A stretch of DNA of 64,000 nt from a virus (IMGVR_UViG_3300034095_001474:64001-128000); one strand, 5' to 3'; positions 32,623-60,878 are shown, counted from the stretch's first letter. The notes: generated by a model from the letters alone, not told the origin. Numbers and translations are program-made.

Positions 32623-32623
32623 A

Positions 32624-41258: not shown

Positions 41259-41331
41259 TGTACCCGAAGAGATTCGAACTCTTGACCCCTCCGTTAAAAG
41301 CGGAGTGCTCTACCAACTAAGCTACGAGTAC
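41259..41331 (-). tRNA. tRNA-Lys(UUU)
   Basis: cloverleaf; ASL CTCCG-CTTTTAA-CGGAG. Confidence 0.92.
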
Positions 41332-41337
41332 ATATAG

Positions 41338-41411
41338 TCTCCCCGATTGGGCTCGAACCAATGACTCTCGCATTAAAAGTGCGATACTCTAGCCAACTGA
41401 GTTACGAGGAG
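41338..41411 (-). tRNA. tRNA-Lys(UUU)
   Basis: cloverleaf; ASL TCGCA-CTTTTAA-TGCGA. Confidence 0.92.
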
Positions 41412-41456
41412 ATATTATTTTTCCAATAACACTCGTAACCATTATGGCCGAGTGCC

Positions 41457-41498
41457 TTATTCCTTTTTCTTTCGCTTGATGTTGATAAGTGTTTTCAT
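41457..41498 (-). promoter_or_regulatory. Lys-rich leader ORF MKTLINIKRKKKE
   Basis: mini-ORF plus hairpin directly upstream of two tRNA-Lys. Confidence 0.55.
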
Positions 41499-41637
41499 AA
41501 TTTAATAGTTTTTAATTTTTTTATAATAACGTCAGTAGGACTTAAAGGGAACCACTCATTTCTATCCCTTCATCAAACGGTAATTATCCGTTATTTGGCG
41601 TAATCCATACATTGCTGCACGTGTATCCTACTTATTG

Positions 41638-41709
41638 AGCGAGAAATGGGATTCGAACCCACGACCCTCTGGTTGGTAACCAGATGCTCTACCACTGAGC
41701 TATTCTCGC
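41638..41709 (-). tRNA. tRNA-Gly(ACC)
   Basis: G1C2G3/C70G71C72, U73; ASL TCTGG-TTACCAA-CCAGA. Confidence 0.88.
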
Positions 41710-41713
41710 ATTG

Positions 41714-41786
41714 AGCTAAAAATCAGAATCGAACTGATAACCTCTTCATTACTAGTGAAGTGCTCTACCAATTGAGCTATTTCAGC
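41714..41786 (-). tRNA. tRNA-Thr(AGU)
   Basis: ASL CTTCA-CTAGTAA-TGAAG. Confidence 0.88.
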
Positions 41787-41845
41787 ATTGAGTGTGGTAG
41801 GTCAGCTGAACCTTGAGGCACCCACACTAGTTATCCCTCTTTTTG

Positions 41846-41916
41846 TGCAGAATGAGGGAGTCAAACCCTCGCCTCGGACTTGGAAGGCCCATGTGCTTTC
41901 GTAACACCTATTCTGC
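41846..41916 (-). tRNA. tRNA-Gly(UCC)
   Basis: ASL TGGGC-CTTCCAA-GTCCG. Confidence 0.8.
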
Positions 41917-42008
41917 AAATTTCGAAGAAAGACAGTCACGGCCACCGCTGGAAATTCTTCTAATGTTAAAGTTTTGGCAAAATGTGGCTCGACCCAAATT
42001 AACACTTG

Positions 42009-42081
42009 AGCCTCAGATGGGACTCGAACCCATAACCTACTGATTACAAATCAGTTGCACAGCCAATCGTGCTCCAGAGGC
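42009..42081 (-). tRNA. tRNA-Thr(UGU)
   Basis: ASL ACTGA-TTTGTAA-TCAGT. Confidence 0.88.
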
Positions 42082-42153
42082 AAATTGATTTTTATTATCC
42101 CCTTGAACTATGTCAAGTACATGGTTAAAAATCTAAATTCTACCTTAACTAAG

Positions 42154-42235
42154 TGAGGCTAGTAGGAATCGAACCTACTCAGCTTACGCAACAGATTTAC
42201 AGTCTGCCCCAGCTCTCCAACTCTGGCGTATCCCC
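42154..42235 (-). tRNA. tRNA-Tyr(GUA)
   Basis: ASL GCAGA-CTGTAAA-TCTGT; long variable arm. Confidence 0.88.
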
Positions 42236-42306
42236 AAATAACAGAATGGCATGTTGATTTTCAAATCCAAATTGAAGCTTTTTAATTTGCTGCAACCATT
42301 CTTTAG

Positions 42307-42380
42307 ATGTCCGAGAGGGCTTCGAACCCCCAGATTCTCCCTTCAAAGGGGAGTGACTTTGCCAGTTTGTCTATCGGACA
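42307..42380 (-). tRNA. tRNA-Gln(UUG)
   Basis: U1-A72; ASL CTCCC-CTTTGAA-GGGAG. Confidence 0.85.
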
Positions 42381-42437
42381 ATAATCTAATTCTACGCTCC
42401 GTTGCACACGGTCTATGAATTAGTAACAATCTGACAG

Positions 42438-42511
42438 TCGAATAAGCTGGATTCGAACCAGCGTGCTCGGCATTCCAAATGCCGCTAGATAAACCGCTCC
42501 TATACTACTCG
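42438..42511 (-). tRNA. tRNA-Pro(UGG)
   Basis: C1-G72, A73; ASL CGGCA-TTTGGAA-TGCCG. Confidence 0.85.
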
Positions 42512-42554
42512 TTAAAGTACGTTCCTATGAGTGTACGTACAACTGACCTCAAAA

Positions 42555-43208
42555 TTATTTCCTACCTTTTAACCATCCTTTATTAAGATAGGTATCTATT
42601 TCTTCTTTTTTAATTTTTTTGTTGGTACCATCTTTGGTTATCCAACATGTACCAAATTGTGAATTATTTTCACCACTTCCTTTACCTTTCATTACACTTT
42701 TAAGTAACTTTTTTGTTTCCTCAGAATGTTTCTTATTTTTAAAGTTACCTTCATTAGTCTCAAAATACTTTTTTTGAGACTTACTCATTTTATCTTTATA
42801 CTCTGGTGTTTCTTTTGCTTTAGCTATATTTAACATTCTTTGTTCTTTAGTGTTATTGAAATTGTTAATACCAGCTTCAGTGAAAACTTTTTTATGACTT
42901 TCAGACCAAATACGACCACCACCAGAACCACCCTCTTTTAAATTCATACAATTATTATCATTAATCATATCTGCGGTAATCGCTTTTATTTCAGCTTCAA
43001 TCAATAATTCTCTATTATCAAAGAACTCTAATATCTCTTTAACATGGTTTTTTTTACCATGTTTCCTTATACTATATCTTAATCTCTTTCCACTACCCAT
43101 ATAACCATCATACATGTTACATGTTGAGTGCATACCTATATAATATCTATTTGTCACCAAACAAGTAGTCTTATATAAGTAATGTATGTGCTTTTCTTTC
43201 CTTGCCAT
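42555..43208 (-). CDS. GIY-YIG (Seg-like) homing endonuclease with NUMOD3-type tail
   Basis: YLYKTT..YYIGMH..YMGSG..KEIL; KKHSEETKK. Confidence 0.88.
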   Translation of the reverse strand: MARKEKHIHYLYKTTCLVTNRYYIGMHSTCNMYDGYMGSGKRLRYSIRKHGKKNHVKEILEFFDNRELLIEAEIKAITADMINDNNCMNLKEGGSGGGRIWSESHKKVFTEAGINNFNNTKEQRMLNIAKAKETPEYKDKMSKSQKKYFETNEGNFKNKKHSEETKKLLKSVMKGKGSGENNSQFGTCWITKDGTNKKIKKEEIDTYLNKGWLKGRK

Positions 43209-43255
43209 ATATTCTTTTTATATAAATATACTGCAAGGTACAAAAAAGTCAAGTG

Positions 43256-43328
43256 TCTAAATAGCTGGACTCGAACCAGCGGTCTCTGCGTCCCAAACGC
43301 AGCGGAATACCAACTTTCCCATATCTAG
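43256..43328 (-). tRNA. tRNA-Pro(UGG)
   Basis: C1-G72, A73; ASL CTGCG-TTTGGGA-CGCAG. Confidence 0.88.
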
Positions 43329-43423
43329 ATAATTTACATTCCTACTCTTGTATATGTACAACCCAAAATAAACCAATATGTCAAATAACTTTCCTAACTT
43401 GTAAAATGGTGTAGGTACCAAAT

Positions 43424-43457
43424 AAAAAAACCCGAAGTCATTTCTGAAATCGGGTTT
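43424..43457 (-). terminator. attenuator terminator of cassette A
   Basis: AAACCCGA/TCGGGTTT followed by U tract. Confidence 0.8.
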
Positions 43458-43481
43458 GGAATATCTTGTAATTAAGAAACT

Positions 43482-43577
43482 TTATTCTTCATTACTCAAC
43501 AGATATAACACACCCGATACACTCGGCTTTCCGCCTTGCGTTTGTTTCGGTTGATATGTGATAAATGTTGTTTTCAT
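43482..43577 (-). promoter_or_regulatory. leader peptide A: MKTTFITYQPKQTQGGKPSVSGVLYLLSNEE
   Basis: 31-aa ORF between promoter and terminator; ATCGGGT complements ACCCGAT of the terminator. Confidence 0.75.
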
Positions 43578-43649
43578 AATTTCTCTTTTTTTTAAATGGG
43601 TTTTTAGCCCGTTGTTTTAATAAATATAACCTTCTTTCTAAAAGTTATA

Positions 43650-43681
43650 CAAATGTACGAACTTTATTTTGATTTGTCAAG
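43650..43681 (-). promoter_or_regulatory. promoter of cassette A
   Basis: CTTG-N20-TACATTTG. Confidence 0.7.
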
Positions 43682-44113
43682 TTTTTTCGTAACTTTTTTT
43701 TGTTTTTTTTCAATTTTATTCATTTCATCCCTTATTTCAGCAGCTTTTTCGTATTCTTCTTCTTCCAAAGCTATCGCCAAAAGTTCTTCAAGTGATTTAT
43801 TTTCTTCAAATGGTACTTCAGAAACTTCTAATTTCACCAAATCACCATCTTCTGTGTTCCATATAGACCTTTTGAAATATAAACCATCTGAATGAAATAA
43901 ATGTATTTCATGTGGTTCACCTAATTCATTGTCTATTTGATGTTGTTTATCAACATCAGTTATTTCTGAAAAGTTTTGTAGACTATCTATAATCTTTTTA
44001 GCTTTTTCTTCATAACTGTCATAATTTTTCTCTTTTCTAGGTCTCCCTCTTTTTTTAGACTTTTTATCGTTGTTATTAAAAAAAGCATCAAAAAGTTCAT
44101 CAAATGTTTCCAT
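43664..44113 (-). CDS. UVR (UvrB/C motif) domain protein
   Basis: C-terminal LEELLAIALEEEEYEKAAEIRDEM. Confidence 0.75.
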   Translation of the reverse strand: METFDELFDAFFNNNDKKSKKRGRPRKEKNYDSYEEKAKKIIDSLQNFSEITDVDKQHQIDNELGEPHEIHLFHSDGLYFKRSIWNTEDGDLVKLEVSEVPFEENKSLEELLAIALEEEEYEKAAEIRDEMNKIEKKQKKVTKKLDKSK

Positions 44114-44114
44114 A

Positions 44115-44549
44115 TTATTTTTTTTTAGTTAATTTTCTGTGTGTATTCACTGCATGGTATTTAAAAGCCTTGATTGGATTTATATTGTAAAAGTACATAA
44201 ATAATATGAAAAAAGCAAATGCTAACATATACATTATTGATATTGTTAACCAATAACTCTTTGTAAGTAACGTTATTGTATAAACAACTATATCATAACC
44301 CAATGGATTTAAAAATAAAGCAATTGCAATAAATATATTTCCCCAGTTAATTTTCTTTAATTTAAAGAATAAATGTGAAAATAAGAATGATACAAATGCC
44401 AATCCATAAAGAATGTACATTGTAACCCAATAATCGTTTGTTAATTGTGTCAGTTTGAACACTAAAATGTCGAACCCAAATGGGTTTAGAAAAGTCGCTA
44501 TCACCAGACAAACTGTCCCCAGTGCTTTTCTGTTCACCACTATCATCAC
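44115..44549 (-). CDS. membrane protein with internal duplication
   Basis: FLNPFGFDILV / FLNPLGYDIVV halves. Confidence 0.75.
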   Translation of the reverse strand: MMIVVNRKALGTVCLVIATFLNPFGFDILVFKLTQLTNDYWVTMYILYGLAFVSFLFSHLFFKLKKINWGNIFIAIALFLNPLGYDIVVYTITLLTKSYWLTISIMYMLAFAFFILFMYFYNINPIKAFKYHAVNTHRKLTKKK

Positions 44550-44601
44550 TATCCATCTTGTTTTTTTTAGTTACAATCACATTATATTAATTTTATGATT
44601 C

Positions 44602-45336
44602 TTATTTTTCTTTATTTAATAAATATCCTAGTCCTACAGTTAAGTTATGAATCATAACAACTTTACTGGTGCTAGCATAATTAATAACATCTTGAATCAT
44701 AAATGATAAATGTTTACTAGACTTCAACGTCACCTTTGTGTTTCCAGTTATAATGACATTATTTGTTACCATACTAGGTTGGTAATAATACTCAGTGTAA
44801 AAACCAAATATGTTTTTTTGATAGTTAAATTTAACTCTAACTGAATGTCTTACATTTTCTTTGACACTATTATTAAAATATTCTGTATTTTGATATATAA
44901 TACCATAAGACAACGATAATTTTGAATTCTTGAACTTTTTCTTATAACCAATTCCCAACCCAAACCAATTATCATTCTGCATACTTCTCAACAATGAATA
45001 ATTGTATTGATTATTAACAAATGAAAACACATTTTTATGTTCATGACTTATATTTAATTTATGAGAAAATTCATTTTGATTTATACTTGGTGAAAAACCA
45101 ATAGTATAATTTAGTATTGAATTCAAATCTAAATTTTTAAAGTTGATGCCGTTATTTCCAATATATGTTATGTTTACATTATCTATATTGGATTGTGCTA
45201 ATACTCCAGTCAACGAATTATCAAAGTTGTATCCATTTAATATTTCTGAATTTGTAAAGAAAGCAGTGTCTACTGATAATGAATCTTGTGAAAATAAGTT
45301 AACACTAATAAACAAAAATAAAATTAATAATTTCAT
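44602..45336 (-). CDS. outer-membrane beta-barrel protein (DUF481-like)
   Basis: signal peptide; alternating beta-strand pattern; EYYYQPS. Confidence 0.65.
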   Translation of the reverse strand: MKLLILFLFISVNLFSQDSLSVDTAFFTNSEILNGYNFDNSLTGVLAQSNIDNVNITYIGNNGINFKNLDLNSILNYTIGFSPSINQNEFSHKLNISHEHKNVFSFVNNQYNYSLLRSMQNDNWFGLGIGYKKKFKNSKLSLSYGIIYQNTEYFNNSVKENVRHSVRVKFNYQKNIFGFYTEYYYQPSMVTNNVIITGNTKVTLKSSKHLSFMIQDVINYASTSKVVMIHNLTVGLGYLLNKEK

Positions 45337-45653
45337 AAATATTTCCTAAAACTAAATAAACGTCTCTTTTTCAAATATGTCAAATCATGGTCATTACCAT
45401 ATGCTTCTTTTTCAAATGAAATATTCATATACCCTTTGGTATACAATTCAATCAGATACCATATATAAAAAGGTATAATCAACATCTCTATTTGCTGCCT
45501 CAAATGAATTCTCTCATGATTTATCAATTCAGCATCAATTATTGTATCAGATGCAATGAATATAAAGGGCCAGAATGCTAGACCCCTTATACCACCACTG
45601 TTACCAAAGAACAATCCGAAAAATCTTAACGCTCTATCGCTTACTACTATCAT
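45333..45653 (-). CDS. HExxH-containing protein
   Basis: INHERIHLRQQ..ISFEKEAY. Confidence 0.7.
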   Translation of the reverse strand: MIVVSDRALRFFGLFFGNSGGIRGLAFWPFIFIASDTIIDAELINHERIHLRQQIEMLIIPFYIWYLIELYTKGYMNISFEKEAYGNDHDLTYLKKRRLFSFRKYL

Positions 45654-45895
45654 ATAGGAAACATTTTATATTGGTTTGGAGAAAGTAGTTCCCATTTTTT
45701 TATTTCACCATCAACATCATTTATCTTTTTTTTAAGAATATTACGTTGTGTATCAAGTAATTTTAGTGCAGTACTATGCTCATGTTTCAAAGAATTCAAT
45801 TCTCTAATTTTAGCAGCAATTTCTTCTGGACCATAAATAGCACTATCTTTATTTTCAGTTAATAATGCTAATTTTTTCTTAATCATATCTTTCAT
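45650..45895 (-). CDS. hypothetical coiled-coil protein
   Basis: ORF in run. Confidence 0.6.
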   Translation of the reverse strand: MKDMIKKKLALLTENKDSAIYGPEEIAAKIRELNSLKHEHSTALKLLDTQRNILKKKINDVDGEIKKWELLSPNQYKMFPI

Positions 45896-45929
45896 ATTTA
45901 CAATTTATATATATAAATATGATGAAAGT

Positions 45930-46763
45930 TTATGATTTCAATAATAATTCTTTGATTTCTGTTACAACTTGTCTATGACCGTTGCCATAAGGTTCCCAAG
46001 CCAATCCCATTGCTTTCAAGTCATAATGCTTAACAATAGTACTAACAGTTTCACCTTCTGGAAATCCAACGATATAGATACTATCAGCCAATTCCACTGC
46101 CAAACGAATATCGTGTGTTGAGAATATGATTGTGTTGTATTCATCTGCTGACAATATACGACCAAATGATTCTTTTACTTTCTCAATATTTCCAACATCC
46201 AATCCAGAGAATGGTTCATCCAAAATCATGAAATGCTTAGAAGTAAGCATTTGTTCAATGATTGCAGTTCTTTGTCGTTGACCACCAGATAATTCACCAG
46301 AGTATTTATCTTTGTGTTCCATCAAACCCCAATCTGTTAAGTACTCTTTGATAAGAGCTTCTTTCTCTGGTTTTGTAAGTGTGCTTTTACGCAATGCGTA
46401 TTGGCAAATTTGATAGACAGTCTTATGTCTAAAGATTGTGTACTTTTGGTCAACAAAACCAATATCACCTTCAGCTACTTGCTTAGCATCTGATTTGTCT
46501 TCTGTTTTGAAGTCAGTGATAAGTACTTGACCACTTGTTGGTAACAATAACCCAGTCAATGCTTTGAATAGCGTAGACTTTCCACGACCAGAACGACCAA
46601 TGAATGCTATTGTTTGACCAGTAGACTCATGTCCATCTCTAATGATGTCTTTCTCTACGATTGTAACGTCTTTAAGGATTTGTTTATCCTTTCCGTTTTT
46701 GTCTTTATACCCTACTGATAATTTATCAACGTAAAGTATCGTTTCTTCTGCTCTATAACTCAT
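45930..46763 (-). CDS. ABC transporter ATP-binding protein
   Basis: GRSGRGKST, LSGGQRQR, ILDEPF, THD. Confidence 0.93.
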   Translation of the reverse strand: MSYRAEETILYVDKLSVGYKDKNGKDKQILKDVTIVEKDIIRDGHESTGQTIAFIGRSGRGKSTLFKALTGLLLPTSGQVLITDFKTEDKSDAKQVAEGDIGFVDQKYTIFRHKTVYQICQYALRKSTLTKPEKEALIKEYLTDWGLMEHKDKYSGELSGGQRQRTAIIEQMLTSKHFMILDEPFSGLDVGNIEKVKESFGRILSADEYNTIIFSTHDIRLAVELADSIYIVGFPEGETVSTIVKHYDLKAMGLAWEPYGNGHRQVVTEIKELLLKS

Positions 46764-47046
46764 TTTTTAATATTTTAATTTCAATAATCGTACCTATCAA
46801 ATTGAGTGTGCCAATAAATAATGGAAACACCCAATAATCGTTTTTTAAAGATATTATACAAATACCTAAAATTATACCTCTTAATATACCTTTTACATAG
46901 TTAATCATGATTAACAGTTTTTTCTAATTTAACAATCTTTTTTTCTAGAACCACATTCTTATCTCTTTCTTTATGGAAAGCAACACAATAGGCGATTGAT
47001 ATCATTACCGCAGTAATCAAAGGGAATACTAATTTATTTTCCATGA

Positions 47047-47817
47047 TTAATAGTTTGAATATCTGAATATTAACTTTCTTAATTTTGTTAGAATGAAATC
47101 TAACGACAACCCTACTATGATGATTACGATTTGAACAGCAACTACTTTTCCGTTATCACCAATCTTATCACCATTTTTGATTAAAACGCCTAACCCACCA
47201 GCAGCAATAAGGATACTCTCAATACTTACAAGCATCATCCATACAATCGCTAAGTTTTGTCTAACCAATTCAAATACGTAATCAAAACGACCTTTGATTA
47301 CCACTTCCCAAAGGATTTCCCATCTATTGCAGCCTAGTGTTCTAGCATGGTCGAATTCTTCTTCTGGAATGTCTTTAATCATTTGCATAAGACTCGTTAT
47401 AAGGAATGTTGTCATAAACATTACCAACACCCATACTTGAATAGTTCTTGCATCGTTTACTAGAATAGTAATGTAGAATGCAATACCAGTAAGTGGCAAA
47501 TATCTAAGTTTAGATATAAACGTACCCAATGATTTAAAGACTGGAATAGCTGTCAAATAAGCAAAGAACAAAGAGATTATAACTGAATATAACACTGCTT
47601 GTGCACAAAGCCCTATAGAGCTTCCTAAATGCACCATAAGTCCTTCTGACCATAATGAACCCATACCGTGCAACACTTGTGCTGGAGTTGGGAATAAATG
47701 TGTTGTTCCAACACTACATGCAACCCAAAAAAGGATAATTGCGATTAACCAACCACTTTGAATGAAACCTTTTTTAATTCCAGTTATTGTTTCAAATGGT
47801 GTAAATAATTTTTTCAT
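47047..47817 (-). CDS. ABC transporter permease (NitT/TauT-like)
   Basis: FPTPAQV, RYLPL, EAA-like loop HARTLG, GGLG. Confidence 0.88.
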   Translation of the reverse strand: MKKLFTPFETITGIKKGFIQSGWLIAIILFWVACSVGTTHLFPTPAQVLHGMGSLWSEGLMVHLGSSIGLCAQAVLYSVIISLFFAYLTAIPVFKSLGTFISKLRYLPLTGIAFYITILVNDARTIQVWVLVMFMTTFLITSLMQMIKDIPEEEFDHARTLGCNRWEILWEVVIKGRFDYVFELVRQNLAIVWMMLVSIESILIAAGGLGVLIKNGDKIGDNGKVVAVQIVIIIVGLSLDFILTKLRKLIFRYSNY

Positions 47818-47882
47818 ATTTCTTTTATTTTAAATTTATAATACAAATGTACAAATTCTTTTTTAATAAACCTAATTTTAAT

Positions 47883-47913
47883 AAAAAAACCCTAATATTT
47901 CTATTAGGGTTTT
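47883..47913. terminator. intrinsic terminator
   Basis: AAAACCCTAATA/TATTAGGGTTTT. Confidence 0.65.
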
Positions 47914-47932
47914 GAATTATATATATCGGTTG

Positions 47933-52003: not shown

Positions 52004-52010
52004 ACTTTTT

Positions 52011-52976: not shown

Positions 52977-53055
52977 TTGCGATTTGAGGAATTGAACCTC
53001 ACGGGGGTATATCTACCAATTCGTCTCATGAAAACGACCCTACACCATTATCGCA
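52977..53055 (-). ncRNA. rearranged tRNA-like RNA with CAU loop
   Basis: acceptor TGCGAT/ATCGCA, T arm, hairpin TCGTT-TTCATGA-GACGA in unusual position. Confidence 0.45.
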
Positions 53056-53061
53056 ATTTTG

Positions 53062-53219
53062 TTCCGATGGAAGGACTCGAACCTTCATTCTCTGGTAAAG
53101 CCACCAGCGATGTATTCCTTTCTACGTTTGTTAAACCATCAGCTTCGTATTGTACACTACTAGGCTTGAAAACCAAACATTCTTTTATACCAAAAGGCAA
53201 CCAATTCATCTTCATCGGG
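53062..53219 (-). ncRNA. tRNA-like RNA with ~85-nt D-loop insertion
   Basis: CCCGATG/CATCGGA acceptor, GATG/CATC D stem, CTGGT/ACCAG stem with 6-nt loop, T arm. Confidence 0.5.
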
Positions 53220-53421
53220 TGAAGTTTATAAGGGCCGAGAGATTTACCTCCAGACTTCCACCACTTTGTTTTACTAAACAAAGAAAATAAGTAAAAGAGA
53301 AGCTTTGGGTCTTTCGGGGTTTCTGATTGAATGCAATGAGTAAGCTCTACCTACTATAAACCCTTTTTCGGTAATTAATACACTCTACCTTTCAATTACA
53401 GCTTAACTACTTCTCTTTATG

Positions 53422-53528
53422 TACAGAATAAAGGATTCGAACCTTTGAGTCCCCGTGTATAGGTATCATACATACCACATTCCCAGACTTTATGTATGCT
53501 CAACCTTAAGCCACTCGGTCAATTCCAT
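53422..53528 (-). ncRNA. class II-like tRNA with enlarged anticodon arm
   Basis: D arm ACC/GGT, CATACATA/TATGTATG stem with 16-nt loop, T arm AAAGG/CCTTT. Confidence 0.5.
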
Positions 53529-53620
53529 ATTTGAGGCTGAGAAGACCTCTGTGTTGTTATAAAAGAAATGTTTAACATTTCTACGTTCCTTTCTCAATGG
53601 AACAACACAATATTTGAGCA

Positions 53621-53750
53621 TCAAGATTGACTTTTTTGTGCTAGCCAGTTACACCACACGCCCACACCTCTGTTAGGACATGCTGGGATTCGAACCCAGA
53701 CCCTTTGTTTTACAGACAATTTTGGTTTATTTGCTGAAACAATCTTTTGT
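53621..53750 (-). tRNA. candidate circularly permuted tRNA (GUA anticodon)
   Basis: 3' half (53675-53720) precedes 5' half (53638-53663); acceptor GGGCGTG/CATGTCC. Confidence 0.6.
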
Positions 53751-53787
53751 ATGCTCTGTTTAGGTCAGAGGAACCTTCAATGTGGGG

Positions 53788-53915
53788 ACAAGATTAACTT
53801 TTTTTCATACGTGCTCTACCACTGAGCTACCGACCTCTGCGAGACCAGGTGGGATTCGAACCCACGACCACGGCATTAACAAGGCTTGAATTTTTGGTTG
53901 CTGAAATAATCTTTT
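53788..53915 (-). tRNA. candidate circularly permuted tRNA-Asn(GUU)
   Basis: 3' half (53841 to ~53885) precedes 5' half (53810-53836); acceptor AGGTCGG/CTGGTCT. Confidence 0.55.
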
Positions 53916-53965
53916 TACCCTTGCAATATTCTACGCAGTTCCCCACGTAGAGTATTGTTTAACAA

Positions 53966-54601
53966 TTACTTGTTAGATGGTGTCACGTTAATTGACCCAA
54001 CTGAACCAGCTTTAGCTCTTTCGATACCAGCAGCTCTTTCAGCATCTAACTGTAAGTACAATTTAGTTACTTGTTCTTCTAAGAACTTGTTTTGAGTAGC
54101 TAATGTACCAATTTTTGCAGCATTTTCAGCAGCGACAGCTTTGTTCTCAGAGTGGATTAATTTAATCTCATTCTCATACTGAGTTTTCAAAGTTGCAACG
54201 ATAGTTGCTACTTCTTTTTTCACTGTAGCTTCAGTGTTAGTTCTTGCAGTGTCTAAATCAGAACGTAAAGTTGTTAATTCAGATGTTGCGATAGACGTGT
54301 AACCGTTAGATGTTAACCACTGAGTTACAACTCTTTCTTGGTTAGCTCTGAATGATAAGTCTAACTCAACGTCAGCTTGTCTACGTTTTTCAGCGTACTC
54401 AACTTCTAATGCAGAAATTGCTTCTTCTTTATTAGCTACTAACATAGTTAATTGCTCTGATTGGTCCGATAAAGTAGAAACTGTTGCAGTTGCTGCTTTT
54501 AATTCGTTTACAGCTTTAGCGATTTGTGCTGCTGCTTGTCCTAAAACTACTTCTGTGTTTGCAGAAGCTTTTCTTGCTGGTGTACTTTTTGGTGTTGCCA
54601 T
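53966..54601 (-). CDS. Ala-rich coiled-coil protein
   Basis: 211-aa ORF with own promoter. Confidence 0.8.
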   Translation of the reverse strand: MATPKSTPARKASANTEVVLGQAAAQIAKAVNELKAATATVSTLSDQSEQLTMLVANKEEAISALEVEYAEKRRQADVELDLSFRANQERVVTQWLTSNGYTSIATSELTTLRSDLDTARTNTEATVKKEVATIVATLKTQYENEIKLIHSENKAVAAENAAKIGTLATQNKFLEEQVTKLYLQLDAERAAGIERAKAGSVGSINVTPSNK

Positions 54602-54844
54602 ACTTTTTTTTCTTTTTTTACTTTTTTTTTTATTATATTATGATTATTATATCCTTTTTCTATACTACAAATATACGAACATTTTCTTTAAATGTCAAGT
54701 GTTTTTGTAATTATTTTTAAAAAATTTTAGTATTTAACTATTTGATTACCAATACTTTTCAATGAACTTTTTCTATACTACAAATGTACGAACTCTTTTT
54801 GAATAATTCAAACTTTTTTACAATTATTTTTATTTTTTTTTTTG

Positions 54845-54938
54845 TGGAGAGATGTGGATTCGAACCACACTTTGGACGGATATTAAGTTATATCTTTCAA
54901 TAACACCACCCTTACTTTACCAATCAAGCTATCTCTCC
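54845..54938 (-). ncRNA. tRNA-like RNA with elongated anticodon arm
   Basis: GGAGAGA/TCTCTCC acceptor, D and T arms, ~20 extra nt in the anticodon arm. Confidence 0.55.
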
Positions 54939-55211
54939 AAATTACCCTCTGAGATTACGAGGACTAGATTTTAACGGTTTTTTTCATCTTGAACAAAACT
55001 ATCTCTCAATTACGCCTATAGTTTTTAACACTACTCTTTGATTGAGCCTTTACATTAGTGTCTTACCACATAAAAATAAGTCAACCATTACGATGGGGGT
55101 AAGATGGTCTTCTTCCCGATTCCAACGAGTCCCCACTCTGGCCGTAGGACTATCTGCCAAGACGTTGTTTAAGTATCGTCATCATAACTTATGAGTACCC
55201 CTTACTCATTG

Positions 55212-55336
55212 TCGGAAGGGAAGGAATCGAACCTCCAAATAGCAGTCCCTAATAGTAGTTTTATGCTGAACATAATCTTTAAACAGATTAACTTTTTTTT
55301 ACATACTGCCGCCTTTACCAATTTGGCCACCTTCCG
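55212..55336 (-). tRNA. tRNA with ~51-nt anticodon-loop insertion (identity uncertain)
   Basis: CGGAAGG/CCTTCCG, GCAGT/ACTGC stem, insert with AATCT/AGATT hairpin. Confidence 0.6.
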
Positions 55337-55350
55337 AATTTAACTTTAAG

Positions 55351-55423
55351 TGGTGAGAGGTGGATTTGAACCACCGACACATGAGTTTTCAGCCCATTGC
55401 TCTACCAACTGAGCTATCTCACC
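55351..55423 (-). tRNA. tRNA-Phe(GAA)
   Basis: ASL ATGGG-CTGAAAA-CTCAT. Confidence 0.9.
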
Positions 55424-55427
55424 ATAA

Positions 55428-55611
55428 TAACCGAAGATAGATTTATGGAATCTTGCTGCAACCATAAACATCTCTTATAGTCTTTATACTATCGTCATAA
55501 ACATTTATGAGCTTCACACACCATTAGAGAGCCGAGTATTTCTACTTATCCTTAGTGCGACACCCTCCGACACGTCTCTCCACGCTTCCTATCCTACGTC
55601 TTTTTCGGTTA
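55428..55611 (-). ncRNA. candidate structured ncRNA
   Basis: closing stem TAACCGAA/TTCGGTTA, GC-richer than flanks, internal GCAGCAA hairpin, promoter upstream. Confidence 0.4.
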
Positions 55612-55700
55612 CTTTATTTTTAATACTTCAATGAACTTAATTTTAACACTGCAAATGTACAAACAATATTTGATATATGCAAATGTTTTTTATTTTTTTT

Positions 55701-55862
55701 TTAATCTAAATAGATGTCGTGTTGAATTACAGCGTAAGCATCCAGCTTAGCACCCAATTCAAAATAGTAACCGAACATGTCGTCACTAATTGCATTCTCT
55801 AACATATAAATTATATAGTTAGCCATCATCTGCATTGCTTTTTGTAGTATCTTTCTTTTCAT
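55701..55862 (-). CDS. 53-aa hypothetical protein (not in ORF track)
   Basis: MKRKILQKAMQMMANY..IYLD directly after a promoter. Confidence 0.55.
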   Translation of the reverse strand: MKRKILQKAMQMMANYIIYMLENAISDDMFGYYFELGAKLDAYAVIQHDIYLD

Positions 55863-55888
55863 ATTACAAATGTACAACAATTTTTTGA

Positions 55889-56077
55889 TTAATCCAAATT
55901 TTTATTAATATTTTCTTTAAGATTTTTGTTCCCTTTTGAATTTGTTGGGTCAAACGGACAATGCCTACAAATATTTCCGCAGCATGTACCTCTTTTTTTA
56001 AGATAGCGTTCAGTATAAACTATCTTTCCTTTTTCTAGGTAATAATCGATTCCTTCTTCAAAACTAAATTTATCCAT
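55889..56077 (-). CDS. DUF5522-like Cys-rich protein
   Basis: YTERYLKKRGTCCGNICRHCPF. Confidence 0.8.
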   Translation of the reverse strand: MDKFSFEEGIDYYLEKGKIVYTERYLKKRGTCCGNICRHCPFDPTNSKGNKNLKENINKNLD

Positions 56078-56411
56078 TTTTGTTTTTATCTAATATTTTG
56101 TAGAACCATAATTTTATATATTCTCTTTGTTCATTATATGTTTTTTCATTTAATTGGAAATTGAATACATTTTTAATTTCTTTCTCACAAACTATTTTTC
56201 CATGTTTTATCAACCCAATTGAATTTATTTCACCTACTGGAATTAAAGAATGTGAAAAATCATTAACATCACTATCACCTAGAACAGTTAAAAATAAATT
56301 ATACTTACCTTCTTTTATTTTATTAGTATCAAAATAAGTATTAACGTTATTAATTTCAGATTCTTTAATTATCGGTAGTGAAACACTTAAATATAACCAA
56401 TATATTTTCAT
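56070..56411 (-). CDS. hypothetical protein
   Basis: start trimmed to MKIYW, downstream of tRNA-Ala. Confidence 0.6.
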   Translation of the reverse strand: MKIYWLYLSVSLPIIKESEINNVNTYFDTNKIKEGKYNLFLTVLGDSDVNDFSHSLIPVGEINSIGLIKHGKIVCEKEIKNVFNFQLNEKTYNEQREYIKLWFYKILDKNKNG

Positions 56412-56427
56412 TTTTAAATAGTTTTTG

Positions 56428-56500
56428 TGGAGATGATGGGACTCGAACCCACATCCTTTACCTTGCAAAGGTAACGCTCAGCCAATTGAGCTACATCCCC
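56428..56500 (-). tRNA. tRNA-Ala(UGC)
   Basis: G3:U70; ASL TTACC-TTTGCAA-GGTAA. Confidence 0.92.
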
Positions 56501-56583
56501 ATATAGTTTGGTAACTATTCGCAAGTTTCGAACCTTTTAATAGCTTTATATCCATACCCACCAAACCACTGGGTATTTACAAT

Positions 56584-56657
56584 TGGCGGTCCATGAGGGT
56601 AACGCTCCCTCGTCTTCGCAGTGACAGTGCGAGATTCTACTTTTATACTAATGGACC
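56584..56657 (-). tRNA. tRNA-Asp(GUC)
   Basis: G73 with encoded CCA; ASL TCGCA-CTGTCAC-TGCGA. Confidence 0.85.
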
Positions 56658-56766
56658 AGTTATCAATTTTCTTTTATTTTCAGTCAGCGGCATTGATTGG
56701 CCTTTCTGTTAATCTTTATTTTCGACCTTTAATCCAACCTTCGTTTAGGTACAAAAAAGTCAATAG

Positions 56767-56838
56767 TACTCCCAGAGAGAATCGAACTCTCATTACCAGA
56801 TTGAAAACCTGGGGTCCTAACCGTTAGACGATAGGAGC
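56767..56838 (-). tRNA. tRNA-Glu(UUC)
   Basis: ASL CCAGG-TTTTCAA-TCTGG. Confidence 0.88.
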
Positions 56839-56909
56839 GTGTTATCTGTCTTTCCAGATTGCCATACTCATACTCTCCAATGAAACGTAACTTTCATTGC
56901 AAGCGTTTG

Positions 56910-56981
56910 TACTGCCACGGAGAATCGAACTCCGATTTTATGGATGAAAACCATAGGTCCTAACCGTTAGACGATGGCAGC
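56910..56981 (-). tRNA. tRNA-Glu(UUC)
   Basis: ASL TATGG-TTTTCAT-CCATA. Confidence 0.88.
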
Positions 56982-56987
56982 ATTTTG

Positions 56988-57060
56988 TGGTGATGGAGGG
57001 ATTCGAACCCCCGACACTCGCATCTTCAATGCGATGCTCTACCAACTGAGCTACATCACC
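56988..57060 (-). tRNA. tRNA-Phe(GAA)
   Basis: ASL TCGCA-TTGAAGA-TGCGA. Confidence 0.9.
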
Positions 57061-57142
57061 GTTATTGTTTTACAAATGTACAAACTCTTTTTCAATTATC
57101 CTAATTTATTTGTACTTTTTTTTTTATTTTTTTTCTATAAAC

Positions 57143-57175
57143 AAAAAAAGCTCTGATTTTTAGGTCAGAGCTTTT
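57143..57175 (-). terminator. attenuator terminator of cassette B
   Basis: AAAAGCTCTGA/TCAGAGCTTTT followed by U tract. Confidence 0.8.
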
Positions 57176-57198
57176 ATCAATTATGTTAAACGATTACG

Positions 57199-57291
57199 TT
57201 AACTTATGATAATAGATGACCTCCCCAAGCTTTCATCGGCCTCGGCTGCAAAGTTAAATGCAAAATCAAATATGTTAGTTAATGTTTTCAT
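57199..57291 (-). promoter_or_regulatory. leader peptide B: MKTLTNIFDFAFNFAAEADESLGRSSIIIS
   Basis: 30-aa ORF; AGGTCA..TTATCA complements TGATAA..TGACCT overlapping the terminator. Confidence 0.78.
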
Positions 57292-57358
57292 AGTTTTTCT
57301 TTTTATGGGTTTTAACCCGTTGTTTTAATTAAATATACCGTTGTTTCCAAAAGTTATA

Positions 57359-57390
57359 CAAATGTACGACATTTATTCCAATTTGTCAAG
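57359..57390 (-). promoter_or_regulatory. promoter of cassette B
   Basis: CTTG-N20-TACATTTG, near-identical to A and C. Confidence 0.7.
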
Positions 57391-57413
57391 TTTTTTTACA
57401 ATTATTTTATTTT

Positions 57414-57755
57414 TTATAAAGAATTTAAGTCTTTTACCTCTTTATGTTTGAATTCAGCACCATCTGTTGTTTTCATAGAAGGTACATATTCATATTCACC
57501 TTGGTACTTTTGTTTTAGATATTGCATCATTGCAGAACCATAACCTTTTCTTCTAAATCCTTCTCTAACTTCTATATGACTTACAGTTAACTCACCATCA
57601 TATAAAACATATTGAACAATACCCATTACATCGCCATTGATATATAAACCCAACTCATAATTATGTTGACCATCATAAGAATCTAAATGTTCTATCTTAT
57701 ATTCAACTTTTGGTTCAATCGATTCTCTTAATATTTGTTTTATAAAATTTTTCAT
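57414..57755 (-). CDS. GNAT-family acetyltransferase
   Basis: IEVREGFRRKGYGSAMM acetyl-CoA motif. Confidence 0.8.
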   Translation of the reverse strand: MKNFIKQILRESIEPKVEYKIEHLDSYDGQHNYELGLYINGDVMGIVQYVLYDGELTVSHIEVREGFRRKGYGSAMMQYLKQKYQGEYEYVPSMKTTDGAEFKHKEVKDLNSL

Positions 57756-57760
57756 CTTTT

Positions 57761-58453
57761 TTATTTATCACCATATTTTCCAGTTATTGCCATTGCCACT
57801 TTTTTTATAAATTCCCTTCTTTGTTCTGGTGTTAACCCAGCACCACCATTTTCATAACTATTAATCATGTTAGCAATAACAATTTCTTTTTTTCTCACCA
57901 TTTGATGCTTGTAATCCAAAACATCTCTCAATCCCATAAACCAAAATCCATCTTCAAATTCTAAATCTGATATTATTTCAGCTTCATTTCTAATTTCAAC
58001 ATTAGCATAAGCACCACCAGCTCTTTTGGGGTCCCAAACAGTAAACGCTTCAATATTCATAGTTGTTAATGGTGGATTTAAGTTATAAGGTCTATATATA
58101 CCATCTTTTAAAAACTCACCCATACCAGCATTTTCCCATATTTCAGTGTTTGGTATTACTATATCTAAATCACCGACACTAGTAGGAAATTCTGGGTCTA
58201 ATTGATTCATTTCATAAACCAACTCTGGATATAAGTATAATCTAGCAGAACCAGCAATAAAATATACACCTCTTTCAGAGTTTGGTTTTATACCAAATTT
58301 ATCAAATATTACAGTTTTTGATTCATGTAAATATTGTGACAATTTAGAATTCATAACCTCATTTAATTGATTACCATCTTTTAGTATTGATTCTAATTTT
58401 GTCCACACATTGTTTTCTTTCAATGCTTCATTAAATAATTCAGATAATTTCAT
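57761..58453 (-). CDS. putative nucleotidyltransferase-fold protein
   Basis: IAGSARL..GDLDIVI (GS..DxD). Confidence 0.5.
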   Translation of the reverse strand: MKLSELFNEALKENNVWTKLESILKDGNQLNEVMNSKLSQYLHESKTVIFDKFGIKPNSERGVYFIAGSARLYLYPELVYEMNQLDPEFPTSVGDLDIVIPNTEIWENAGMGEFLKDGIYRPYNLNPPLTTMNIEAFTVWDPKRAGGAYANVEIRNEAEIISDLEFEDGFWFMGLRDVLDYKHQMVRKKEIVIANMINSYENGGAGLTPEQRREFIKKVAMAITGKYGDK

Positions 58454-58751
58454 ATTCTTTTAATCTTTCTATTGCTTCTTTATCATATTGGTTTTCAATA
58501 GTCAATGATTTAAAAGATAAAAACATATCTTTTGGACTTGGACCTTTTAAGAATAAAAAGTTGTAAGCCGACCATTCACTAGTTAAATAGTAACCATTTT
58601 CATTTTTCATTTTATCAAGCAAACACATTGGGTGTTTATTGATGTATTTCCAATCGTAATCATTACATACTTTACTTACTTTCTTCATAAAGATTGTAAA
58701 CTCAATGTATCTAACTACTAAAACCAAAGATATAAACCAAATCGCTATCAT
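58440..58751 (-). CDS. hypothetical protein with N-terminal TM
   Basis: ORF in run. Confidence 0.6.
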   Translation of the reverse strand: MIAIWFISLVLVVRYIEFTIFMKKVSKVCNDYDWKYINKHPMCLLDKMKNENGYYLTSEWSAYNFLFLKGPSPKDMFLSFKSLTIENQYDKEAIERLKEYEII

Positions 58752-58826
58752 AATATAAATATTTAATGTTTATCAAATGTAATGATAATATTTTAATTAT
58801 CCTAATTATTTATGAATTTTTATTTG

Positions 58827-58908
58827 TACAGATAGAGAGACTCGAACTCTCACGCCTTTCGGCAAACGCTTCTAAGGCGTTCGGGTCTACCAATTCCCCC
58901 ATATCTGC
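58827..58908 (-). tRNA. tRNA-Leu(UAG)
   Basis: ASL AACGC-CTTAGAA-GCGTT; long variable arm; A73. Confidence 0.9.
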
Positions 58909-58913
58909 ATTTA

Positions 58914-59014
58914 AGATTGAAGTAGGACTCAAACCTACACAGCAGCCTTTGTTAGACCTCTAATGCTACCACCCCAGGTTATTGAGGCATGTCTATCAAT
59001 TTCATCATTCAACC
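58914..59014 (-). ncRNA. Leu-type tRNA-like RNA with 23-nt anticodon loop
   Basis: GGTTGAA/TTCAATC, D arm ATG/CAT, GCCTC/GAGGT stem, T arm. Confidence 0.55.
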
Positions 59015-59018
59015 TTTG

Positions 59019-59100
59019 TACCGAGAGAGGGAGTCGAACCCTCACGCCCTACGGGCAAGGGATTTTAAGTCCCTCGTGTCTACCATTCCACCACCTCGGC
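59019..59100 (-). tRNA. tRNA-Leu(UAA)
   Basis: ASL AGGGA-CTTAAAA-TCCCT; long variable arm. Confidence 0.92.
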
Positions 59101-59175
59101 ATTTGGATAGACATATGACCGTGTGGTCTATCCCGTCACCGTGACAAATAATTGACTAGTTCATGCATTCGTCAA

Positions 59176-59397
59176 TCAATCATTCATCAACACAATTTGT
59201 GCTTCTTCGAGAGGCATGTGTGTCTGCTGTTTCCATTGGTTGTCTCTGTAGTTCTTCCAACTCTTATGGTCAGAATTTCTATTTCTGTTACAACCTCTGT
59301 GTGGTGCACAAATTGGACACCCCAATATTTCTTCTCTAACAGTCATTTTATACACTCTGCTGTTGTTCGTGTGTTTTTTCTCGTCTTTTTTTCTCAT
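59176..59397 (-). CDS. small basic Cys/His protein
   Basis: CPICAPHRGCN..SWKNYRDNQWK. Confidence 0.55.
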   Translation of the reverse strand: MRKKDEKKHTNNSRVYKMTVREEILGCPICAPHRGCNRNRNSDHKSWKNYRDNQWKQQTHMPLEEAQIVLMND

Positions 59398-59468
59398 AAT
59401 TTAAGTGTTAAGCATGTGCTTCACCTAAATCGAGTTCCTTTTCTAGTTTTCATATTCTTCATTTTTAG

Positions 59469-59541
59469 TAGGGGTAGAGGGATTCGAACCCCCGACCTAT
59501 TGCATGTAAGGCAATTGCTGCTACCGCTGAGCTATACCCCT
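59469..59541 (-). tRNA. tRNA-Val(UAC)
   Basis: ASL ATTGC-CTTACAT-GCAAT. Confidence 0.88.
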
Positions 59542-59731
59542 ATTTTTCTTTATCTTTAATCATATTTGTTGCACAACACTCATATAGTTCTGCTATGTTT
59601 TTTCTTTTATCACCTGGATATGTTGTTAATCCATCTAACAAACCACTATCAATCCATTTCTGAATCATTTCTTCACGTCTGTTTTTCATACGTTCAATAT
59701 TGTCTGATATTGAGTGACCTAAGTTTTCCAT
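59540..59731 (-). CDS. hypothetical protein resembling a gp23-type capsid N-terminal segment
   Basis: KWIDSGLLDGL..NIAELYE; start trimmed to MENLG. Confidence 0.5.
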   Translation of the reverse strand: MENLGHSISDNIERMKNRREEMIQKWIDSGLLDGLTTYPGDKRKNIAELYECCATNMIKDKEK

Positions 59732-59745
59732 ATTCTTAATTTTTG

Positions 59746-59818
59746 TTGGCCTGGGGAATTTCGAAATCCCGACTTCTGCCATGTAAAAGCAGCACTCTTG
59801 CCTCTGAGTTACAGTCCA
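59746..59818 (-). tRNA. tRNA-Val(UAC)
   Basis: ASL CTGCT-TTTACAT-GGCAG. Confidence 0.82.
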
Positions 59819-59830
59819 AGGTGATGGGGT

Positions 59831-60094
59831 TTAATTACCCCATCTTATTGTGTTATTTGCAATTGCTTTTCGAATATATCTCATTAGCGTAATTGCTTTA
59901 TATGTTCTTTCAAAGCTTGACTCACCAATATCTTCAGTATTGGTTGTATCAATTGGGAACTCATATTTATACTTATCAGTTTGAACTGTGTAATATAAGT
60001 TACCTTCTTTGTAGTATGCGAACTCTGCTGTCGTTCCTTTTACTATTTCTGTAATCGTTTGTGGTACTACCACTGTTTCGTTAACTGTATCCAT
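59831..60094 (-). CDS. hypothetical protein
   Basis: ORF ending KAITLMRYIRKAI. Confidence 0.7.
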   Translation of the reverse strand: MDTVNETVVVPQTITEIVKGTTAEFAYYKEGNLYYTVQTDKYKYEFPIDTTNTEDIGESSFERTYKAITLMRYIRKAIANNTIRWGN

Positions 60095-60404
60095 TTTCTT
60101 TTTTATATTTTTCGTGCATTAAATGTATTGTATGGTAAGGACTTCCACCTTTACCTTCAACTATTTCATTGAAACCGTTTTCTTTGGTTATAACAGATTC
60201 TTCAGCTTTGATAGAACCTCTGAATTTATCACCATAACTTCCAGAAACTGTTTTGGTTGCTGGGTCTATATCACCCCAAGAACTTCTAAAGTTTCTAGGT
60301 TCAATAAATTCAACAAAATACTGCTTACCAGTTTGAATATACGTAATCACTTCTCTTCCAGTTTCATCTCTGTTAACTAGGAAATTCTTTCTAACATTTG
60401 TCAT
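60081..60404 (-). CDS. hypothetical protein
   Basis: ORF in run. Confidence 0.7.
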   Translation of the reverse strand: MTNVRKNFLVNRDETGREVITYIQTGKQYFVEFIEPRNFRSSWGDIDPATKTVSGSYGDKFRGSIKAEESVITKENGFNEIVEGKGGSPYHTIHLMHEKYKKENGYS

Positions 60405-60584
60405 AACATTTTTTTTTACTTTCTTTTAGTCTTTAACAACTTTTTTATTATTTTTCCCCAATTGAATGAATTATCCAATTTTACTACATTTGGTCTCATG
60501 ATTTCTCTAGACCCTTTGATATTCCCCGACATCACTTTTTTTCCTTCTTCGTTTCTTTCTGTTTTCATATTTTATTTGTTTTAG

Positions 60585-60657
60585 AACACCTAGTTGGATT
60601 CGAACCAACGCATAACGGTTTTGCAAACCGCCCCCTTAACCACTTGAGCATAGGTGC
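60585..60657 (-). tRNA. tRNA-Cys(GCA)
   Basis: U73; ASL GCGGT-TTGCAAA-ACCGT. Confidence 0.9.
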
Positions 60658-60660
60658 ATA

Positions 60661-60692
60661 AAAAAAGCCCATCTAAATTGTTAGATGGGCTT
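60661..60692 (-). terminator. attenuator terminator of cassette C
   Basis: AAGCCCATCTAA/TTAGATGGGCTT plus U tract ending about 3 nt before tRNA-Cys. Confidence 0.85.
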
Positions 60693-60721
60693 CATATTGT
60701 TTTTGTTATTTAAGTCAAACA

Positions 60722-60796
60722 CTAACAAACATAGCCCACCCCGTCTACTGCAAGTAAACATAATAAAAGGACGTGTAATGTGTTAATTGTTTTCAT
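60722..60796 (-). promoter_or_regulatory. leader peptide C: MKTINTLHVLLLCLLAVDGVGYVC
   Basis: 24-aa ORF; GGTGGGCT..TTTGTTA complements TAACAAA..AGCCCATC. Confidence 0.78.
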
Positions 60797-60846
60797 AATT
60801 TTTCTTTTTGTTTCTATTAAATATACCCCTATTTCTAAAAGTTACA

Positions 60847-60878
60847 CAAATGTACGACATTTATTTCAATTTGTCAAG
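60847..60878 (-). promoter_or_regulatory. promoter of cassette C
   Basis: CTTG-N20-TACATTTG. Confidence 0.7.

Follow-up and report, generated by a model that had tools for sequence, protein, structure and literature searches.

The minus strand of a 64,000-nucleotide (nt) stretch of viral DNA (IMGVR_UViG_3300034095_001474:64001-128000; the whole stretch is called the window here, and positions are counted from its first letter) carries three paralogous cassettes, A, B and C, each placed upstream of a run of transfer RNA (tRNA) genes. With a probability of roughly 0.8, we regard these cassettes as multivalent ribosome-mediated transcription attenuators which gate the tRNA arrays of a large AT-rich phage (GC content of the window, 31.9%) and provide tRNAs on demand. 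This reading is built on what was observed of the anatomy of the cassettes, their conservation, covariation, match of codons to tRNAs and positional logic. On a wider scale, the cassettes and their relatives probably form a four-channel, self-correcting controller of tRNA supply in giant phages, in which the leaders would gauge the speed of decoding and the matching block would be transcribed when decoding is slow, for example owing to host tRNA decay or anticodon nucleases.

Leader cassettes, their tRNA arrays and their relatives

A first-pass annotation, made by a model from the window sequence alone, had proposed one common layout for the three cassettes, and all of the elements listed in it were found on the minus strand at the places given, in the order promoter, 5′ untranslated region (UTR) motif, A-rich tract, ATG-initiated leader open reading frame (ORF), hairpin with U tract and tRNA array. 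The promoter, a 32-nt word (CTTGACAAAT..N..CGTACATTTG), occurred three times as compared with 0.00 expected from shuffles; it is composed of TTG at −33, a spacing of 20 nt and TACATTTG at −7, which is the Bacteroidota −33/−7 type. The common 33-nt motif of the 5′ UTR (TTTGTRTAACTTTT..TATATTTA) gave three matches, 0.02 being expected. All three leader ORFs begin with MKT and each lies behind an A-rich tract. The tRNA lists of the first-pass annotation were also correct: ARAGORN recognized 21 tRNA genes, which lie from 41258 to 60657 and without exception on the minus strand, and tRNA-Asp(GUC) at 56657-56587 was detected by Rfam only, which in addition gives a 125-nt tRNA-like gene at 55336-55212.

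43650..43681, minus strand: promoter of cassette A (promoter word)
57359..57390, minus strand: promoter of cassette B (promoter word)
60847..60878, minus strand: promoter of cassette C (promoter word)
43621..43653, minus strand: 5′ UTR motif of cassette A (motif scan)
57330..57362, minus strand: 5′ UTR motif of cassette B (motif scan)
60818..60850, minus strand: 5′ UTR motif of cassette C (motif scan)
43482..43577, minus strand: leader ORF A, 31 codons and stop
57199..57291, minus strand: leader ORF B, 30 codons and stop
60722..60796, minus strand: leader ORF C, 24 codons and TAG
41258..43328, minus strand: array A, Pro, (217-amino-acid ORF), Pro, Gln, Tyr, Thr(UGU), Gly(UCC), Thr(AGU), Gly(ACC), Lys, Lys (ARAGORN/Rfam)
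56427..57060, minus strand: array B, Phe, Glu, Glu, Asp(GUC), Ala (ARAGORN/Rfam)
58826..60657, minus strand: array C, Cys, Val, Val, Leu(UAA), Leu(UAG), with small ORFs interspersed (ARAGORN/Rfam)

It had further been claimed that the amino acids clustered in each leader are those of the tRNAs downstream, and this was borne out for all three. In leader A, K, T, Y, Q, P or G occupies 15 of the 17 positions of the cognate block (codons 2-18, 43574-43524; binomial p 2e-6), a composition matched by none of 14,457 equal-length segments of the window's proteins. The cognate block of leader B (codons 8-20, 57270-57232) has F, D, A or E in 12/13, and its whole front block has 12/19 from this set (binomial p 2e-4). 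Leader C has L, V or C in 9/11 of codons 7-17 (60778-60746) and in 9/16 of its front block (p 2e-4; 0/14,526 segments). The background for these comparisons was taken as equal-length segments from the 69 long ORFs of the window, none or almost none of which match the leaders.

In order to find relatives, public viral and metagenome contigs were scanned with the UTR motif, and 19 viral and 46 metagenome loci reduced to 57 distinct cassettes; two metagenome loci (L035 and L050) had been discarded as chance matches before this count, and three matches in cellular genomes, which had neither tRNAs nor leaders, were likewise judged to be due to chance. The 57 cassettes fall into four classes, namely A, B and C of the window and a class D, which the window lacks. 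Class D leaders are rich in I, H, M, S, N, W and R (they read like M-R-T-I-N-I-H-M-I-S-I-S-N-W-R-R-N-S..), and class D arrays carry His, Trp, Ile, Met, Asn, Arg and Ser tRNAs, precisely for the seven amino acids that A-C do not cover. Class D, which the first-pass annotation did not include, thus obeys its expectation that leader composition would track tRNA content in orthologous cassettes. For 20/20 amino acids, the tRNA was carried by the arrays of the class with the leaders richest in that residue (binomial p 9e-13, treating amino acids as independent). All four classes, in the order D, C, B, A, are held by one contig of 54.5 kilobases (kb). In another contig, whose RlaP protein is 96% identical to that of the window, D lies 21.6 kb upstream of C, and class D is thus expected beyond the end of the window in this phage. 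When distant relatives were collected through the neighbouring RlaP gene (55-78% identity), the classes were unchanged; a different partition of tRNAs was sought among them, and only the same partition was found.

The match was also visible at the level of codons, as the leader block holds a codon for each of the anticodon species in the array, isoacceptors included (Ser TCG and AGT; Arg AGA and CGC/CGT; Leu TTA and CTT/CTA; Gly GGC and GGA/GGG; Ile ATT and ATA). The block codons are mostly the A/T-ending ones preferred by the phage. Among homologues, the leader frame was preserved in the 57 cassettes, block indels being multiples of three, and the order of residues drifts while the composition stays; one Ser codon even switches box (AGC to TCG). 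Replacements stayed within the cognate set in 9/12 cases in class A and 7/8 in class D; no such bias was seen in class B (1/8) or class C (4/22). The leaders carry the features of translated ORFs and are presumably translated. The drift in order with kept composition, the in-frame indels and the isoacceptor coverage together point to selection acting on what is decoded and not on the peptide sequence.

A match between leader codons and the anticodons of downstream tRNAs, next to a terminator/antiterminator pair, is also what a T-box-like element would offer, in which uncharged tRNAs are sensed directly and the leader codons serve as specifier triplets, with no translation. We consider this hardly credible. 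Ten to seventeen such "specifiers" would have to share one frame, opened by an ATG behind an A-rich tract and closed by an in-frame stop, and the indels are in frame, with synonymous or within-set substitutions. There is no conserved T-box bulge for reading the acceptor end, and the Rfam models of the Trp, His, Leu, Thr and Phe leaders and of the T-box gave no match in 41000-61000 at E ≤ 1, nor window-wide at gathering score; no other riboswitch was matched in the region even at E ≤ 1.

Several further features of the cassettes were noted. A small hairpin lies between the common motif and the start codon in cassettes A (43600-43615) and B (57308-57322) on the minus strand, with the sequences GGGCT..ACCC and GGGTT..ACCC; none is present in cassette C of the window, and in relatives the hairpin covaries (GAGG/CTC, GAGCAT/ATGCTC, GTGG/CCAC). 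Leader C of the window alone among the leaders ends in TAG. Near the class D cassette of locus L039, ARAGORN reports a tRNA with the anticodon CTA (9005-9077, minus strand), which would read amber codons. After the class D terminator (L009, L012, L016, L018 and others) there is a conserved ORF of about 55-60 amino acids with no Pfam match, followed by the tRNAs. Downstream of class D in L012 stand a NUMOD3/TnsA-like endonuclease and a kinase plus tRNA-ligase-CPD-like protein; in a sister contig of L012, examined for a displaced or lost class D array, the neighbouring loci leave a gap of 6.5 kb.

Terminators, antiterminators and the modelled position of the ribosome

The terminators and the leader segments that may compete with them are as follows.

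43424..43457, minus strand: intrinsic terminator A (AAACCCGA..TCGGGTTT and U tract), −13.8 kcal/mol
57143..57175, minus strand: intrinsic terminator B, stem of 11 base pairs (bp) and U tract, −13.0 kcal/mol
60658..60693, minus strand: intrinsic terminator C, 13-bp stem and U tract, adjoining tRNA-Cys, −18.5 kcal/mol
43511..43526, minus strand: region 2 of A (antiterminator 5′ strand), core ATCGGGT at 43518-43512, pairing with ACCCGAT of the terminator 5′ arm
57217..57222, minus strand: candidate region 2 of B, AGGTCA, pairing with TGACCT (57167-57162) in the top of the arm and the loop
60733..60742, minus strand: region 2 of C, GGGGTGGGCT, pairing with AGCCCATC(T) of the terminator 5′ arm, −16.2 kcal/mol

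Terminators B and C, scored at 57175-57146 and 60693-60664, were the two strongest terminator-like sites on the minus strand of the region. In each of the 49 complete cassettes, a hairpin of −11 to −18.5 kcal/mol stands before a run of five or more U, compensatory changes being seen in the stems. A pairing value of 59% for the class A terminator was dismissed, since in the MAFFT alignment the 3′ arm is displaced by one column for the window's subclade, and another alignment gave 13/13.

The segment in the 3′ part of each leader ORF that had been described as complementary to the 5′ arm of the terminator was upheld for cassettes A (z −2.2 against shuffles) and C (z −3.7) and not for B, where the complementarity was no better than in shuffles in the arm-only test (z +0.5). 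With relatives included, the antiterminator pairing of classes A, C and D gave z values of −2 to −4.8. The class A antiterminator was paired in 91/91 cells of 13 sequences with two compensatory pairs, slid controls giving 12-50%, and since the two 5′-arm positions concerned also covary with the 3′ arm, three strands change together. The class C antiterminator was 95% paired, again with compensatory changes, and covariation of antiterminator and terminator was found in classes A, C and D; in class B, a hairpin over the stop codon covaries. For transcripts that do not yet include region 3, folding predicts upstream pairing of region 2 with codons 5-15 at P 0.5-0.9 (1:2 helix), and in these models the layout amounts to the classic 1:2, 2:3 and 3:4 helices. 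The attenuator architecture claimed at first recurs in the 57 cassettes, with antiterminator covariation and the positional logic given below; cassette B is weaker than had been implied, having a short antiterminator and a possible bypass promoter.

Folding of the leaders with and without a ribosome footprint had been proposed as a check. Each leader was folded as far as the terminator loop, a 28-nt mask standing for the ribosome at every A-site position, and the number of pairs between the ORF and the terminator arm was taken as the readout, the equilibrium probability of a paired arm being too coarse because of local pairings. The pairing of ORF to arm was about 8-10 bp up to the end of the cognate block and then fell to 0-3 bp in all four classes. 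The boundary lay at codon 17/18 (A), 19/20 (B), 15-17 (C) and 17/18 (D), and the cognate fraction before and after it was 0.96/0.42, 0.64/0.03, 0.60/0.39 and 0.89/0.36, respectively. In the folding models, the cognate codons occupy the part of the ORF where a stalled ribosome would leave the antiterminator free. With the ribosome at the stop codon, the antiterminator of B and C stays blocked.

From these data, the following course of events may be proposed. Host RNA polymerase would start at the Bacteroidota-type promoter and transcribe the short leader ORF, the front of which would present codons for exactly the amino acids of the downstream tRNAs. When decoding is fast, the ribosome would reach or pass region 2, which would be masked or re-paired with region 1; with region 2 unavailable, the 3:4 terminator hairpin would form, and transcription would end before the first tRNA. 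When any cognate aminoacyl-tRNA is scarce, the ribosome would stall within the cognate block, leaving region 2 free to pair with the 5′ arm (2:3), and the polymerase would read through into the tRNA array. The outcome would be a negative-feedback, demand-driven supply of tRNA through four separate channels covering all 20 amino acids. We infer the translation of the leaders, the step from stalling to read-through and the cause of tRNA depletion in infection; possible triggers are loss of host tRNA, the action of an anticodon nuclease, mismatched codon usage and starvation.

Control by translation could also do without a terminator/antiterminator switch, if ribosomes on the leader modulated Rho access, RNase cleavage or the stability of the precursor and the hairpin were mainly a processing or stability element. 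Such an arrangement would agree with the weak antiterminator of cassette B, with the antiterminator winning at equilibrium without a ribosome, and with the Lys mini-leader inside array A (41498-41457, described below), whose conserved and covarying hairpin has no U tract, meaning that at least one related element cannot use intrinsic termination. It fits poorly with the strong stem and at least 5 U of 49/49 complete cassettes, and a leader segment which covaries with a terminator 5′ arm that itself covaries with the 3′ arm is expected only if the two pairings compete. We hold this explanation to be unlikely, though the least so of the alternatives considered.

Read-through and the points that weigh against attenuation

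The distance from the terminator to the first tRNA bears on the need for read-through. In class C, the gap between the U tract of the terminator and tRNA-Cys is 9-17 nt, and in many class A relatives, the terminator is 11-22 nt from the first tRNA. These gaps are too short for another promoter, and the first tRNAs of class C and of many class A relatives would therefore be made only by read-through. The class A cassette of the window has a 102-nt gap before tRNA-Pro, in which no Bacteroidota −7 box is present. One box was found past terminator B.

57073..57080, minus strand: second −7-like box (TACATTTG) between terminator B and tRNA-Phe, with a poor −33; possible bypass promoter

These gaps also bear on another explanation, according to which the leaders encode small peptides with a function or serve as untranslated spacers, the terminators work as constitutive insulators, the tRNAs are transcribed from internal promoters and the match of leader to array is a by-product. 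The promoter-like box past terminator B, present in most class B relatives, and the 102-nt gap of class A in the window would both suit it, and the peptides of class C are hydrophobic and could pass as a membrane peptide. On the other hand, a by-product would not be expected to give a 20/20 match over four classes (p of about 1e-12) together with isoacceptor coverage, there is no room for a promoter before the first tRNA in class C and many class A relatives, and the order of the peptide drifts while its composition is kept. We therefore find it very improbable, and attenuation remains our preferred reading.

Some RNA traces were available from lake water. In one lake metatranscriptome, low-depth contigs identical to the phage bridge the 3′ part of the leader, terminator C and tRNA-Cys (60547-60741), and a further contig bridges terminator B and tRNA-Phe (56981-57190); in a second metatranscriptome, a 90-nt piece lies over leader C. 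As neither RNA ends nor strand are visible in such contigs, DNA carry-over is possible and protein-coding pieces were present at similar depth, the bridging contigs were taken as a weak hint of co-transcription and were not counted as evidence.

A number of observations weigh against the attenuator reading, and several of them concern the composition and reach of the arrays. Codons 2-6 of leaders B and C are non-cognate. Stray tRNAs with no counterpart in the leader were found: two class A arrays carry one for His, a class B array one for Ser and a class D array one for Thr. Behind the D leader of two contigs stand a small ORF, tRNA-Ser and then several ORFs, among them one homing-endonuclease-like and one kinase/CPD-like gene, with no further tRNA within 3.7-4.8 kb. 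Moreover, the arrays extend over 2-2.4 kb with internal ORFs, and their distal tRNAs may be controlled otherwise, as the Lys mini-leader illustrates.

Other difficulties lie in the switch itself. The stop codons of A and D stand 22-30 nt beyond region 2, which a terminating ribosome does not mask; because of this distance, the antiterminator is free again once the ribosome has reached the stop, and termination in A and D would require either fast re-pairing of 1:2 or a trailing ribosome. Without a ribosome, the equilibrium favours 2:3 pairing, which makes the default state of an untranslated leader uncertain. The 1:2 helix of class A is 99% paired and invariant, so covariation is uninformative there. 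In class B, the antiterminator (AGGTCA:TGACCT) is only 6 bp long and invariant, with no covariation, and the second TAnnTTTG box past terminator B is kept in most class B relatives. On account of this 6-bp antiterminator and the second promoter, cassette B is the weakest of the set; it may have a basal route, in which case attenuation there could only add to a basal level. Finally, extra tRNA would be useless if the amino acids themselves were short.

Surrounding genes and comparison with known systems

Array A contains two further elements. The Lys mini-leader (M-K-T-L-I-N-I-K-R-K-K-K-E, minus strand, 41498-41457), with four Lys codons in its last seven, directly precedes the two tRNA-Lys genes and is followed by a 7-bp hairpin that has no U tract (whole element 41498-41427). 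It is kept in relatives as Lys-rich peptides with a covarying hairpin, and Lys may have a sub-control of its own by a different mechanism. The 217-amino-acid ORF (42555-43208, minus strand) that separates the two tRNA-Pro genes has no Pfam match; it has a GIY-YIG-like YIG motif at its N-terminus, and its C-terminus is resembled in locus L003. Judging from these features, it is probably a homing endonuclease inserted into array A. The adjacent tRNA-Gly(ACC) and tRNA-Thr(AGU) genes (41637-41786, minus strand) have A34 anticodons, which are rare in bacteria except for Arg(ACG), and tRNA-Gly(ACC) was also present in class A arrays of relatives.

Between arrays B and A (52808-55423, minus strand) lies a cluster of unusual tRNA-like genes: a second tRNA-Phe, the 125-nt tRNA match at 55336-55212, a weak tRNA match (54938-54845), a YrlA-like/tRNA-like match (53894-53787) and a tRNA with the anticodon ATA (52879-52808). 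At the same place in relatives, ARAGORN calls tRNAs with 2- or 4-base anticodons.

Genes for RNA turnover and repair and for nicotinamide adenine dinucleotide salvage occupy 11791-13746, 25437-26483, 31006-33960 and 61254-62429 of the window (minus strand); the four intervals encode an RNB-family exoribonuclease (RNase II/R-like, E 2e-109), PRPP synthetase, NAMPT, NUDIX and an RlaP RNA-repair-type nucleotidyltransferase, and endonuclease VII and HNH genes are further neighbours of the arrays. This gene set would be consistent with a phage that remodels host RNA and nucleotide pools. Three genes at 45930-49777 (minus strand) resemble a phage-borne transporter set, with an ATPase (Walker A, LSGGQ signature), a multi-pass membrane protein and a 614-amino-acid protein with a C-terminal OmpA domain.

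Parts of the window phage were recovered in 23 DNA runs of lake-water metagenomes from 17 studies, and a contig related to it spans 233 kb. A near-identity search with the whole region revealed no close relatives among GenBank phages and gave tRNA-sized matches only. The best GenBank match, Cellulophaga phage phi4:1, was rejected as an instance of the same system, as it has one mixed tRNA array and lacks this layout.

The first-pass annotation knew of no attenuator controlling tRNA genes, and our full-text literature search agrees with it, having found no published attenuator or leader-peptide control of tRNA genes in phage or cell; one candidate paper was set aside, because it mentions a tRNA operon in a different context only. 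If the attenuator reading is true, the cassettes would represent the first leader-peptide attenuation known to act on tRNA genes, and the phage would carry in them an inbuilt sensor of defences directed at tRNAs. Classical attenuation would then reach a target of a new kind, namely the very molecule that is sensed, and tRNA supply would be regulated per amino-acid group. The cassettes could then provide a simple reporter of tRNA depletion during infection as well as compact orthogonal codon-specific sensors for synthetic biology. The split of 20 amino acids over four paralogous leaders is a remarkably clean natural experiment, since leader sequence predicts array content.

The nearest known systems are the leader-peptide attenuators of enterobacteria, such as trpL, hisL, pheL and leuL and the multivalent ilvGMEDA (Ile/Leu/Val) and thr (Thr/Ile) leaders. 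With ilvGMEDA and thr, the phage cassettes share a short leader with clustered regulatory codons for several amino acids, predicted competition of 1:2, 2:3 and 3:4 helices, an intrinsic terminator and, likewise as a prediction, a stalled ribosome that frees the antiterminator. In contrast, they precede tRNA genes and not biosynthetic enzymes, their leaders cover three to seven amino acids each, and four paralogues divide all 20. They are also phage-encoded, have Bacteroidota-type promoters and match no Rfam leader, and the stop codons of A and D lie well past region 2. As their downstream genes are tRNA arrays and not biosynthesis or synthetase genes, they fall outside the described leader families.

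Among attenuators of translation components, the nearest is that of the E. coli pheST operon, in which the pheM leader peptide controls a synthetase for one amino acid; it resembles the phage system in that a component of the translation apparatus is controlled by the supply of charged tRNA. There, the product is a cellular synthetase, whereas in the phage it would be the tRNA itself, and the loop would close directly on the molecule that is sensed. T-boxes, which bind one uncharged tRNA directly and are untranslated, likewise sense tRNA status through a terminator/antiterminator upstream of translation-related genes; the phage elements differ in having features of translated ORFs and no T-box match. 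The tRNA sets of T4, T5 and other phages are commonly viewed as compensating for codon usage, host tRNA decay or anticodon-nuclease defences, or as decoys for and replacements of tRNAs that such defences cleave, and like them the large sets described here may be presumed to sustain translation late or under tRNA-targeting defence. To our knowledge, expression of T4/T5-type phage tRNAs has been treated as promoter-driven or constitutive, and we know of essentially no study of the regulation of phage tRNA genes. The mechanism proposed here is a known one, that of multivalent leader-peptide attenuators, and its target, tRNA genes, would be new.

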